The translations under genes and the position numbers were made by a program. 64,000 nt of DNA from Nannocystis sp. (GTDB taxonomy: Bacteria; Myxococcota_A; Polyangia; Nannocystales; Nannocystaceae). The notes beneath the pieces were generated by a model. That model ran no database searches, was not told where the DNA came from, and saw only the letters and a program-made list of their open reading frames with translations. Every line of letters begins with the position of its first letter. The first letter of the stretch is position 1. The stretch lies in NCBI RefSeq assembly GCF_016717175.1, contig NZ_JADKFZ010000004.1; one strand, written 5' to 3'. Positions 35,056 to 37,365 of this stretch are shown piece after piece.

Positions 35056-37365
35056 TCATTGCCGCAGGTGGCGGAGCAGCGTAACAGCGTGTTCGTGCTT
35101 GACTTCGCCCGACTCGATGAGGCGTGTGACGAGGATCTCTATTTCGGGGCCGAGAGCGCCTGCGCCGATGGCGACCGAGCGCGCGTGGAGGCCCATGTGG
35201 CCGCGCTGGATGCCCTCGGTTGCGAGCGCGCGGAGGGCCGCGAGGTTGCTGGCGAGGCCGACGGCGGCCATGACCTGGCCGAGCATGGTGCGGGCGTGCG
35301 GACCGAGGATCTGGAGGGCGAGGCGGGCCGAGGGTTGCACCTTGGTGGCGCCGCCGACGGTGCCGACGGCGGCGGGCAGGCTGATGCTGCCCTCGAGGTG
35401 GCCGTCGGCGGCGACGCTCCAGGTGGCGAGCGGGCGGTAGGCGCCGCTGCGGGCGGCGTGGGCGTGGGCGCCGGCCTCGATGGCGCGCCAGTCGTTGCCG
35501 GTGGCGAGGACGACGGCGTCGACGCCGTTCATGACGCCCTTGTTGTGGGTGGCGGCGCGGTAGGGGTCGAGCTCGGCGAAGCGGGAGGCGGAGGCGATGC
35601 CGGCGGCGACCTCGTCACCGGGCCAGCCGGGCGCGGCGAGGGCGGCCGGGGGCACGCGGCAGCTGACGTGGGCGCAGCGGCGGTCGGCGAGGTTGCTGAG
35701 GATCCGCAGGCCGGGGTGCCAGCCGCTGAGGGCGTGCAGGCGAGGGGCGAGCGCCTCGGCGATGGTGTTGAGGAGGTTGGCGCCCATCGCGTCCTGGCAG
35801 TCGACGATCGCGTGGACGACGAGCATGTCGGGGGCGAGGACGCGGACCTCGAGCTCGCGGGCTCCGCCGCCGCGGGCGACCAGGCGCGGGTGGGTGGCGT
35901 CGGCGAGGGCGAGCAGCTCGGTGCGAGCGGCGAGGATCGTGGCGGCCGCGGTGGCGGCGTCGAGGCGGGCGGGCTGCGGGGCGCAGAGCTGGACCTGGGC
36001 GATCATCCACGGGGGATCGGCGCGGGCGACGAAGCCGCCGCCGGCGCGGACCATGCGGGCGGCGTTCGATGCGGCGGCGACGACCGAGGCCTCCTCGATG
36101 GCCATCGGGACCAGGAGGTCGACGCCGTTGATGCGGAAGTTGGTGGCGACCGCGAGCGGGATCTGGAGCGTGCCGATGACGTTCTCGATCAGGTTGTCGG
36201 CGCTCTCGAGGCTGAGGCTGCCGGGGTCGAGGGCGCTGAAGTCGGCGAGCGGGAGGCCGGTGCTGGCGGCCAGCTGGGCGCGGCGCTCGGGGACCTTGAG
36301 CTTGAAGAAGCCGCCGAGGCGGGAGTGCGTCGGCGGGCGCGGCTCGCTGCGCAGGCCGGGGGCGGCGACGGCGATGTGGTTCAGGAGGTGGAGGTTGTGC
36401 TCGCGGGCGAGGCGGACGCCGAGGCGGTCGAGCTCGGCCTGGCTGGCGGCGAACACGACGACGAGGTCCCCGCCGCCGGCCCCGGTCGGCTTGGCGGCGA
36501 GGCCGAGGGCGCGGGCGAGGTCGGTGATGGCGGTGATCGGCGGGGTGAGGATCGGGGCGCCGCTGAGGGCCTGGAGGGCGGCGAGGCCGAGGTTGTGGTG
36601 ATCGACGGCGCGGCGGATCGCGGCCATGCCGGGGCCGGGGTCGGCGAGGGCGTAGCCGGCGAGGAAGTCGTGGCTGGCGCGGGTGAGGAGGTCGATCGCG
36701 CGGGCGTGGGCGGCGGGGTCGGCGGTGGCGGCGGCCTGGACCCGGCGCACGAAGGCGGCGGTGTGGGCGGGGGCGCCGGCGTCGACGAAGCCGACGTGCA
36801 GCCAGGCGGGGTGGGCGAGCAGGACGGGGTCGCTGCCGCGGGTGAAGCGGAGGCTGCCGCCGAGCACGGCGGCGGCGACGTCGCCCCCGCTGCCGCCGCC
36901 CTGGGCCTGGTGGTGGGCGGCGCGGGCGAGGGCGAGGGCGAGGGCGCGGGTGTCGGCGCTGGCGAGGTCGTGGCCGGCCTCCTGGAGGTGGAAGCCGACG
37001 ACGGCGGCGGCGACGGCGGCGCTCGAGCCGAGGCCGAGCTTGCGATCGCCGCGGCTGAAGGGGCCGGTGTCGACGCTCGGGACCTCGCCGAGGGTGCGCG
37101 GGCCTGTCCTGGAGGACAGGTGGTCGCGGTGCTCGCTGAGAGCCTGCGGCCCGGGGCCTGTCCTCGAGGACAGGTGGTCGCGGACCTGGGCGTGGGCGGC
37201 GAGGCTCAGGTCGCTGGGGGCGGGGCGGTCGGGGTAGTCGCAGTCGTGGGCGACGGCGCGGACGTCGACGGCGGTGACGAGCGCCGGGACGCCCTCGAGC
37301 ACGGCGTACTCACCGATGAGGAAGGCCTTGCCGGGGGCGGAGACGGGGCGGCGCGCGGGGGTCAT
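35056..37365 (-). CDS. Single ORF fusing phosphomevalonate kinase (N-terminal, GHMP family) to class-II HMG-CoA reductase (C-terminal)
   Basis: The N-terminus reads MTPARRPVSAPGKAFLIGEYAVLEG (PMK-like), with the GHMP motif KLGLGSSAAVAAAV and KPTGAGGGDLVVVF. Downstream, in the same frame with no stop, it reads GGFFKLKVPERR...ADNLIENVIGTLQIPLAVATNF...DAMGANLLNT...ATHNKGVMNGVDAVVLATGNDWRAIEAGAHA, which is HMGR class II. The ATG at 37365 overlaps the upstream gene's stop (ATGA). Confidence 0.75.
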   Translation of the reverse strand: MTPARRPVSAPGKAFLIGEYAVLEGVPALVTAVDVRAVAHDCDYPDRPAPSDLSLAAHAQVRDHLSSRTGPGPQALSEHRDHLSSRTGPRTLGEVPSVDTGPFSRGDRKLGLGSSAAVAAAVVGFHLQEAGHDLASADTRALALALARAAHHQAQGGGSGGDVAAAVLGGSLRFTRGSDPVLLAHPAWLHVGFVDAGAPAHTAAFVRRVQAAATADPAAHARAIDLLTRASHDFLAGYALADPGPGMAAIRRAVDHHNLGLAALQALSGAPILTPPITAITDLARALGLAAKPTGAGGGDLVVVFAASQAELDRLGVRLAREHNLHLLNHIAVAAPGLRSEPRPPTHSRLGGFFKLKVPERRAQLAASTGLPLADFSALDPGSLSLESADNLIENVIGTLQIPLAVATNFRINGVDLLVPMAIEEASVVAAASNAARMVRAGGGFVARADPPWMIAQVQLCAPQPARLDAATAAATILAARTELLALADATHPRLVARGGGARELEVRVLAPDMLVVHAIVDCQDAMGANLLNTIAEALAPRLHALSGWHPGLRILSNLADRRCAHVSCRVPPAALAAPGWPGDEVAAGIASASRFAELDPYRAATHNKGVMNGVDAVVLATGNDWRAIEAGAHAHAARSGAYRPLATWSVAADGHLEGSISLPAAVGTVGGATKVQPSARLALQILGPHARTMLGQVMAAVGLASNLAALRALATEGIQRGHMGLHARSVAIGAGALGPEIEILVTRLIESGEVKHEHAVTLLRHLRQ

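Follow-up and report, generated by a model that had tools for sequence, protein, structure and literature searches.

Does a single myxobacterial gene encode two enzymes of the mevalonate pathway, and is its product one bifunctional protein? The question is raised by a locus on contig NZ_JADKFZ010000004.1 of Nannocystis sp. (assembly GCF_016717175.1), from which we analysed a stretch of 64,000 nucleotides, referred to here as the window. An earlier note on this DNA had pointed out an open reading frame (ORF) whose first half resembles phosphomevalonate kinase (PMK) and whose second half is a class II 3-hydroxy-3-methylglutaryl-CoA (HMG-CoA) reductase (HMGR). We consider it likely that this is an ancient, fixed fusion gene encoding a bifunctional mevalonate-pathway protein, with a PMK of the GHMP kinase family at the N-terminus and a class II HMGR at the C-terminus. 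Coordinates of the gene, its parts and its neighbors are collected in Table 1.

Translation of positions 35056-37365 bears out the continuous frame of 769 codons that had been described, with no internal stop codon; the gene lies on the minus strand, which the earlier note had not stated, and all six of the peptide strings quoted there are present in the translation. The product is identical, by exact look-up, to NCBI proteins MBK9754441.1 and WP_293252511.1 from a metagenome-assembled genome (MAG) of Nannocystis sp. It is laid out as a GHMP kinase (residues ~1-340), a seven-residue linker (341-347) and a class II HMG-CoA reductase (348-769), and, of the Pfam domains in it, GHMP_kinases_N covers residues 108-170, GHMP_kinases_C residues 259-319, and HMG-CoA_red (E 1.9e-100) residues 358-728. 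The window has a GC content of 72%, and long ORFs occur by chance in all six frames; the fusion frame is recognized as the coding frame because GC at its third codon positions (GC3) reaches 96-98% and because it carries matches to Pfam and NCBIfam domains. A program-made list of ORFs extends this frame further upstream, to a GTG at 37914 (952 aa). The true start is the ATG at 37365 and not this GTG, since the alignments of orthologues, the ATGA overlap with the stop codon of the preceding diphosphomevalonate decarboxylase (MDD) gene and the 769-aa call made by NCBI all agree on it.

We looked for the fusion with a word-indexed search of 5.8 billion proteins, grouped into clusters at 90% identity, and a scan of loci in which one genome was taken per species and a locus was called fused when both halves lie in one stop-to-stop ORF. 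The protein search returned at least 120 clusters of 745-800 aa that span 99-100% of the query and contain both domain sets, and the locus scan recovered a single fused ORF in 48 of 63 loci. Orthologous fusions, the existence of which the earlier note had left to database searching, are thus found by both approaches. Cultured isolates with the fused gene include Nannocystis punicea FL3 (a complete chromosome), N. exedens DSM 71, N. bainbridge, Nannocystis sp. RBIL2, Plesiocystis pacifica SIR-1 (a Sanger-era genome), three strains of Enhygromyxa salina, Paraliomyxa miuraensis and Nannocystaceae bacterium ST9. The fusion is genuine and common to the whole Nannocystis/Enhygromyxa/Plesiocystis group.

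The most trivial explanation of the long frame would be an error of sequencing or assembly, or else a recent accident, akin to a pseudogene, confined to this genome, given that an error of 1-2 nt could merge the overlapping genes that are found in unfused relatives (see below) and that indels do occur in some assemblies of the gene. Indeed, the following observations weigh against an intact gene throughout the group. In N. pusilla Na p29 (locus L054; NZ_JAPNKE010000002.1, 7992-10224) two internal frame changes break the fusion gene up into three reading frames, and a database record for this species consists of a fragment of 233 aa called 'mevalonate kinase family protein, partial'; locus L062 also has frame changes in the gene. 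These changes are either assembly indels, which for Na p29 would be long-read errors, or real decay. For the gene as a whole, an artefactual origin can hardly be credited, as the frame is continuous, with neither a stop nor a frameshift at the junction, in 48 independent assemblies made with varied technologies, among them a complete genome and the Sanger-era genome of P. pacifica SIR-1. The gapless junction, the monophyly of the fused genes and the signature of purifying selection speak against it as well. The description of a PMK-like half and a full class II HMGR within a single ORF is therefore upheld by its recurrence in 48 genomes, by the junction and by the monophyly.

The unfused relatives indicate how the gene arose. 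In 11 more distant loci (L048-L053, L055, L056, L060, L061 and L063), whose MAG labels include Sandaracinaceae, Polyangiaceae, Polyangiales, Polyangia and Myxococcaceae (Myxococcota), PMK and HMGR are encoded by separate ORFs that are adjacent and in the same order but in different frames. Their products are 31-37% identical to the PMK half and 56-60% identical to the HMGR half of the window protein. The PMK stop and the HMGR start form an ATGA overlap in six of these loci, and a gap of at most 40 nt separates the two genes in the rest. Unfused HMGR proteins begin with M(S/A)RTSRIPGFYK, 50-51 residues ahead of ENVIG, and this start (MSRTSRIPGFYK) aligns to PPTHSRLGGFFK in the window; unfused PMK proteins end a few residues past a G(V/I)R motif that corresponds to GLR in the fused proteins. 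Judging from these alignments, the fusion joins the natural C-terminus of PMK to approximately residue 4 of HMGR by way of seven residues, and the ATGA overlap of the unfused pairs, which share the gene order mevalonate kinase (MVK)-MDD-PMK-HMGR, falls exactly at the position of the linker.

In a phylogeny of the HMGR half, computed by neighbor-joining without bootstrap, rooted with an archaeal HMGR and taking in the 46 fused halves that were long enough, all 46 fused sequences form one clade with no unfused member. Since the unfused relatives keep the two genes adjacent or overlapping and the fused genes are monophyletic, the simplest history is a single origin. The ancestral operon was MVK-MDD-PMK-HMGR, with the two last genes coupled by an ATGA in which the PMK stop overlapped the HMGR start; one small change that joined the frames there, in the common ancestor of Nannocystis, Enhygromyxa and Plesiocystis, removed the PMK stop.

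Ratios of non-synonymous to synonymous substitution rates (dN/dS) for the kinase and HMGR halves are both 0.14 for an Enhygromyxa pair; for the window and its closest relative (locus L001) they are 0.19 and 0.17, respectively, when a variable loop in the kinase is excluded. Both halves are under purifying selection, and the kinase is the faster-evolving of the two. In deep pairs within Nannocystis the kinase dN/dS rises to 0.6-1.1, and some relaxation of constraint on the kinase in this sub-clade is conceivable. Ratios near 1 are probably an artefact of compressed dS at 98% GC3, and closer or less GC-extreme pairs give 0.14-0.38. Comparison of the window with loci L002, L003 and L004 over kinase residues 6-40 and 100-335 gives a non-synonymous rate 1.3-2.7 times that of the HMGR half.

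The seven-residue linker lies between the C-terminal 'GLR' tail of PMK and the N-terminal 'SRLxGFFK' of HMGR, at the place where unfused relatives have the PMK stop and HMGR start. Across 48 orthologues the junction aligns without a single gap, with the consensus GLRxExRxPxxSRLxGFFK; G337, S348, R349 and G352 are invariant, and R339, R343, P345, F353 and F354 are conserved in at least 90% of the sequences. In the window protein the stretch that spans the junction reads ...GLRSEPRPPTHSRLGGFF..., and a full-length AlphaFold2 model gives residues 331-360 a predicted local distance difference test (pLDDT) value of 90-95.

The earlier note had proposed, as an alternative to a fusion protein, that HMGR starts at an internal GTG or TTG in the same frame, and had suggested checking for an internal ribosome-binding site. 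Neither element was found: the window ORF has no in-frame ATG, GTG or TTG between codon 304, within the kinase, and codon 421, which is 74 residues into HMGR, and the junction DNA of the window has no GGAGG-like motif. At the DNA level, no positionally conserved start codon is present near the junction among the 48 orthologues; between positions 335 and 365, 14 of them lack ATG, GTG and TTG altogether, and the remaining 34 have at least one, at scattered sites. As no start codon is conserved, an internal start was rejected as the main mechanism. Two separate proteins could also come from a continuous ORF through non-canonical internal initiation (e.g. at CTG338 or ATC331) or through proteolysis at the linker. 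Near-cognate codons do lie near the junction, and the 34 orthologues with a scattered start codon would be compatible with such a scheme. We nevertheless regard separate products as unlikely: apart from the missing canonical start and GGAGG-like motif in the window, and the 14 orthologues without any start codon, the linker is of fixed length, conserved and predicted to be ordered, unlike a cleavage spacer or an intercistronic region, and after an ancient single fusion, selection for separate proteins should have restored a start or stop codon, which it has not.

The C-terminal half is readily identified. It scores 359.1 bits with TIGR00532 (class II HMGR; cut-off 259.95) and 336.9 bits with PF00368, covering profile positions 2-368 of 368, and it aligns to residues 5-426 of the 428 residues of the Pseudomonas mevalonii HMGR (1qax; E 1.8e-116), so that it is untruncated. 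The large, small and C-terminal flap domains are complete, and the AlphaFold2 model is confident through residue 769. With the P. mevalonii enzyme it shares end-to-end homology, the ENVIG, DAMGAN and GTVGG motifs and the same catalytic residues: Glu83, Lys267, Asn271, Asp283 and His381 correspond to E425, K609, N613, D625 and H723, which are conserved in every orthologue covering each position.

The two enzymes differ in that the present one has an N-terminal extension of 347 residues, a biosynthetic instead of a catabolic genomic context, and H/P/R/R instead of D/Q/L/L at the positions that determine cofactor use. In the NADH-specific HMGR of P. mevalonii, positions 146/147/148/152 are D/Q/L/L, and in NADPH-specific enzymes they are Y/P/S/R (PMC10070635). 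The corresponding H492, P493 and R494 do not vary among the 49 fused-family sequences, and R498 is present in at least 90%. Because H/P/R/R resembles Y/P/S/R and the gene lies in a biosynthetic operon, the HMGR half is probably a biosynthetic reductase, likely using NADPH. A degradative role, in which the enzyme oxidizes mevalonate with NAD as in P. mevalonii and the fusion serves mevalonate catabolism, might be read from the best model, as TIGR00532 bears the name 'HMG-CoA reductase, degradative', and from the nearest solved structure, which is the P. mevalonii enzyme itself. This role is very improbable for a gene that sits between type 2 isopentenyl-diphosphate isomerase (IDI-2), MVK and MDD on one side and hpnCDE on the other, and whose strongly conserved H/P/R/R is nearer to the NADPH-type than to the NADH-type pattern. 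Throughout the clade, the product name 'degradative', which was taken over from P. mevalonii HMGR, is probably a misnomer.

The N-terminal half clearly belongs to the GHMP kinases: PF00288 and PF08544 both exceed their cut-offs, and APGKAFLIGEY (motif I), RKLGLGSSAA (motif II), QGxGSGxD and KPxGAGGGD (motif III) are invariant across ~49 fused-family sequences. AlphaFold2 models were built from a 41-sequence alignment; the kinase alone reaches a pLDDT of 91.9 and a predicted template modeling score (pTM) of 0.90, and all top matches in a Foldseek search of this model against the PDB are GHMP kinases. As to which GHMP kinase it is, it is very likely a PMK, a label that we infer from operon position, from elimination and from the best profile and structure matches, and that is the least secure part of our reading. 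Whereas the HMGR half exceeds the cut-off of its model, the kinase half scores under the curated PMK cut-off, and the PMK label is therefore indirect.

Several results weigh against the PMK label. The kinase half scores 80 bits with TIGR01220 (PMK; cut-off 165.7), 31 bits with Arch_PMK (cut-off 500) and 31.8 bits with ERG8 (cut-off 377), and for the window sequence the PMK score is barely over that of the MVK model (80 bits with TIGR01220 and 74.5 bits with TIGR00549, the MVK cut-off being 163). A profile built from kinase halves matches the Streptococcus pneumoniae PMK, of all bacterial PMKs the one best studied biochemically, at 44 bits, more weakly than archaeal and eukaryotic MVKs at 74, and the Foldseek TM ranges of PMKs and MVKs overlap. 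The curated PMK models derive from distant lineages, TIGR01220 being named for Gram-positive PMKs, and a score below the cut-off means that the protein is not a recognizable equivalog by that model, which is not proof that it is something other than a PMK.

On the other hand, the same profile, made from 20 kinase halves and compared with the PDB, has as its top match 3k17 (Listeria Lin0012) at 114 bits, with MVKs at 74 or less, and 3k17 is also the top structural match (TM 0.74, compared with 0.71 for 3gon and 0.61-0.72 for MVKs). Lin0012 is presumably a PMK, judging from orthology; the PDB title of 3k17 is silent on that. Genuine MVKs exceed 200 bits with TIGR00549 (203.8 for the MVK of this operon, 204-251 for the MVK domains of other HMGR fusions), and since the kinase half reaches 74.5 bits it is not a standard MVK. 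Two divergent members of the fusion family (P0121 and P0122) score 95-111 bits with the PMK model and 55-76 with the MVK model, and unfused homologues with 35-42% identity are mostly named phosphomevalonate kinase by JGI.

Genomic context points the same way. The order mvaK1-mvaD-mvaK2 is that of Gram-positive cocci, and the kinase half, the only PMK candidate within the operon, occupies the PMK position in MVK-MDD-PMK. Because a separate MVK and a classical diphosphomevalonate decarboxylase are encoded there, the PMK step is needed and would otherwise be unassigned in the operon; for the MDD protein, a phosphomevalonate-decarboxylase model scores well under its cut-off. Other identities for the N-terminal half would be a second MVK, a GHMP kinase acting on another substrate, or a non-catalytic regulatory or scaffold domain. 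The scores below every curated PMK cut-off, the near tie between the PMK and MVK models for the window sequence, a fold search that does not discriminate, and the names 'mevalonate kinase' or 'hypothetical protein' that several sources give to unfused homologues would all agree with such identities. We find them improbable, as a dead domain would not be expected to keep the ATP- and substrate-site GHMP motifs invariant in ~49 sequences, a true MVK of 204 bits is encoded two genes upstream, the classical type of MDD requires PMK activity, and the divergent family members favor the PMK model by 35-40 bits. Furthermore, the GEYAVLEG sequence of the kinase half is similar to GEYAVVESG of Lin0012 and not to the GEHxVV of the MVK in the operon. 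Compared with the bacterial PMKs of the mvaK2 type (Lin0012, 3k17; S. pneumoniae, 1k47 and 3gon), the kinase half has the same GHMP fold, the GEYAV and QGxGSxGD signatures and the operon position after MVK and MDD; it differs in being only ~20% identical, below the TIGR01220 cut-off and fused to HMGR.

Seven co-directional genes make up the cluster (31650-40454, minus strand): IDI-2, MVK, MDD, PMK::HMGR, HpnC, HpnD and HpnE, leading from HMG-CoA towards squalene. The hpnC-hpnD-hpnE genes (31650..35059, minus strand), downstream of the fusion, stand for squalene synthesis from farnesyl diphosphate. ATGA overlaps couple MVK to MDD and MDD to the fusion gene, and also the fusion gene to hpnC if the long form of hpnC is used; the start of the fusion gene lies in an ATGA or GTGA context in 39 of 42 orthologues. 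Of the 48 fused loci, 31 have the order IDI2-MVK-MDD-PMK::HMGR-HpnC-HpnE, and contiguous parts of it are seen in most of the others. Among the 11 unfused loci, seven show MVK-MDD-PMK-HMGR alone, flanked by neither IDI-2 nor hpnC in the available sequence, and two further loci have an IDI-2 match on the opposite strand. With its ATGA-coupled start at 38405, MDD begins MIPVPPPPPPPPPPPPGAP (38350-38405, minus strand), which includes 12 consecutive prolines; translation of such a run is expected to need elongation factor P (EF-P). An alternative MDD start (MRAARAV...) lies 19 codons downstream.

Table 1. Features of the fusion gene and of its surroundings, in window coordinates
Feature	Position	Strand	Details
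Complete fusion coding sequence	35056..37365	-	769 codons and TGA stop (35056-35058); translation, codon table, exact protein look-up
N-terminal GHMP-kinase domain, putative PMK	36346..37365	-	Residues 1-340; Pfam, NCBIfam, profile, AlphaFold2, motifs
Kinase motif I	37291-37338	-	APGKAFLIGEYAVLEG
Kinase motif II	37015-37044	-	RKLGLGSSAA
Kinase motif III	36466-36492	-	KPTGAGGGD
Kinase variable loop	37096..37179	-	Residues 63-90; two in-frame hairpin-repeat copies
Seven-residue linker	36325..36345	-	EPRPPTH, residues 341-347; gapless alignment of 48 orthologues
C-terminal class II HMG-CoA reductase	35059..36324	-	Residues 348-769; 1qax alignment, residue mapping
Cofactor-determinant residues	35872-35892	-	H492, P493, R494, R498; pattern H-P-R-x-x-x-R
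ATGA overlap, MDD stop and fusion start	37362..37365	-	Context CCATGACC
IDI-2, first in cluster	39405..40454	-	349 aa; TIGR02151 370 bits, cut-off 281
MVK	38402..39322	-	306 aa; TIGR00549 203.8 bits, cut-off 163
MDD	37362..38405	-	347 aa; TIGR01240 232.7 bits, cut-off 171
hpnC	33923-34897, or to 35059 with ATGA-overlapped start	-	TIGR03464 314 bits
hpnD	32992-33909	-	TIGR03465 251 bits, just under the 278.6 cut-off
hpnE	31650-32984	-	TIGR03467 416 bits
Palindrome sites outside the kinase loop	13700, 16546, 16573, 30093, 30129, 30163, 30220, 31501, 31627, 53492		

In the working that we propose, the IDI2-MVK-MDD-PMK::HMGR-hpnCDE operon would be read as a chain of translationally coupled genes, and the fusion product would be a polypeptide of ~80 kDa that dimerizes via its HMGR domain, forming at least (PMK-HMGR)2. 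Class II HMGR is an obligate intertwined dimer, in whose dimerization the N-terminal sub-domain takes part (PMC10070635), and its active sites are shared across the dimer. Because the dimer is obligate, each would carry two PMK domains, held in a fixed position near it. The HMGR domain would convert HMG-CoA to mevalonate, probably with NADPH; free MVK would phosphorylate the mevalonate, and the PMK domain would make mevalonate 5-diphosphate for MDD. The two fused enzymes are therefore two steps apart, with only MVK in between, and not three steps, as had been stated in the earlier note. Direct channelling is unlikely between two reactions that do not follow one another, and the most economical reading is a fixed 1:1 stoichiometry with co-assembly of an entry step and a downstream step, or else a neutral fusion that became locked in.

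The full-length AlphaFold2 model has a pLDDT of 87.7 and a pTM of 0.85, and so high a pTM for two domains of equal size suggests a defined mutual orientation. Caution is called for here in that a single polypeptide of 80 kDa, the two activities and the oligomeric state are deduced from sequence, and a fixed inter-domain arrangement is read from the pTM and pLDDT values of the model. A more speculative and rather unlikely proposal is that a fixed PMK-HMGR assembly, in which the conserved and ordered linker clamps two kinase domains to the HMGR dimer, couples the two activities, either through allosteric action of PMK ligands on the reductase or through recruitment of MVK into a three-enzyme metabolon. 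The ligand states of PMK that could act as allosteric signals are ATP, phosphomevalonate and diphosphomevalonate, and a three-enzyme metabolon could feed squalene and sterol synthesis. The fusion would gain interest if the ordered junction mediates functional coupling of the domains, and allosteric or metabolon coupling, if true, would be a mode of mevalonate-flux control undescribed in bacteria.

The closest known parallel is MvaE of Enterococcus faecalis, in which a thiolase (residues 1-378) precedes the HMGR (381-803) (PMC10070635). Both are natural bifunctional proteins in which a class II HMGR is C-terminal to another enzyme of the pathway, and in both the fused enzymes are non-consecutive: thiolase and HMGR have HMG-CoA synthase between them in the pathway, and HMGR and PMK have MVK. 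They differ in that the partner is a GHMP kinase of the lower pathway here and an acetoacetyl-CoA thiolase of the upper pathway in MvaE; a Pfam scan found no thiolase domain in the N-terminal half. Moreover, the linker here is of ~7 residues, ENVIG stands in the loop that reads ENQIS in the enterococcal enzyme, and the present protein belongs to Myxococcota (Nannocystineae) and MvaE to Firmicutes. The fusion protein is analogous to MvaE and is not a member of the MvaE family.

To survey HMGR fusions, 1.84 billion cluster representatives were searched exhaustively with HMMER, and Pfam and NCBIfam scans and cluster look-ups followed. The proteins recovered include thiolase-HMGR (P0230, P0163), MVK-HMGR (P0126, from a different Myxococcota MAG), HMGR-MVK (P0130, P0138, P0148), HMGR-MVK-IDI1 (P0133 and P0150, Desulfobacterales MAG), IDI2-HMGR (P0219, P0246), HMGR-polyprenyl synthase-squalene/phytoene synthase (P0154 and P0155, up to 1453 aa) and HMGR-terpene synthase (P0135). 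Further fusions are prenyltransferase-like (Trp_DMAT)-HMGR and HMGR-squalene/phytoene synthase-epimerase, and the survey list also has P0162 and P0188. In the other fusions of HMGR with a kinase, the kinase is a clear MVK (204-251 bits with TIGR00549), which catalyzes the step right after HMGR, whereas the kinase considered here is PMK-like and acts one step further. Where the source names these other fusions they carry just 'HMG-CoA reductase', and, thiolase-HMGR aside, they appear to be uncharacterized. Fusions of HMGR with thiolase are known, as the earlier note pointed out. PMK-HMGR is less exceptional than that note had supposed, given how often class II HMGR is joined to some other enzyme in public sequences, metagenomes among them; it is one variant in a wider, largely undescribed set.

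The fusion is visible in databases yet apparently undescribed: a search of open full-text literature turned up no account of a PMK-HMGR fusion, and in Hoshino & Gaucher 2018 (PMC6107057) the only mention is of a fused unrelated sequence that was trimmed from alignments. Under the name given by NCBI and JGI, 'HMG-CoA reductase, degradative', the kinase goes unseen and an enzyme that is biosynthetic and probably of the NADPH type is mislabeled; several of the other HMGR fusions are obscured in a similar way. A 2023 study of sterols in Nannocystis (PMC10152446) found HMG-CoA synthase, MVK, MDD and IDI, and for PMK and HMGR it reported 'no obvious gene homologue'; the split gene of N. pusilla and its 233-aa fragment may be behind these two gaps. 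The fusion gene would supply both of the enzymes missed in N. pusilla and so complete the mevalonate route to myxobacterial sterols. It is also a clean example of the passage from ATGA-coupled neighbors to a fusion protein, with the states before and after both surviving in sister lineages. On the Rosetta-stone principle, physical association of PMK with HMGR is conceivable also where they are separate proteins, and the natural PMK-HMGR module, together with the other HMGR fusions, could provide parts for mevalonate-pathway engineering.

The kinase half contains an expanding repeat. Two hairpin palindromes (37103-37120 and 37157-37174) lie in the variable loop, where DHLSSRTGP is encoded twice, and a pattern search found the palindrome CCTGTCC-N4-GGACAGG, which is similar to repetitive extragenic palindromes (REP), 12 times in the window, compared with 0.01 expected. 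The RNA fold of the loop repeat has a z of -5.6, and the loop is the only low-pLDDT stretch of the AlphaFold2 model, a surface loop left disordered. Tandem Repeats Finder did not report the 54-nt repeat of the loop, of which there are only two diverged copies. The number of copies is one in L001, two in the window and ~5 in tandem in L002, with none in other Nannocystaceae orthologues, and for this reason we conclude that a hairpin-forming repeat is gaining copies, in frame, inside coding sequence.

Another palindrome, GTGCCCCCGCGGCAC, is present in three copies (0.08 expected) at 34928-35011, between the stop codon of the fusion gene and the hpnC core. If hpnC starts at the ATG at 35059, HpnC would have an N-terminal extension in which these repeats are read as HVPPRH three times. 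The fusion stop and the core of HpnC are 264 nt apart in the window and 108-287 nt apart in relatives.

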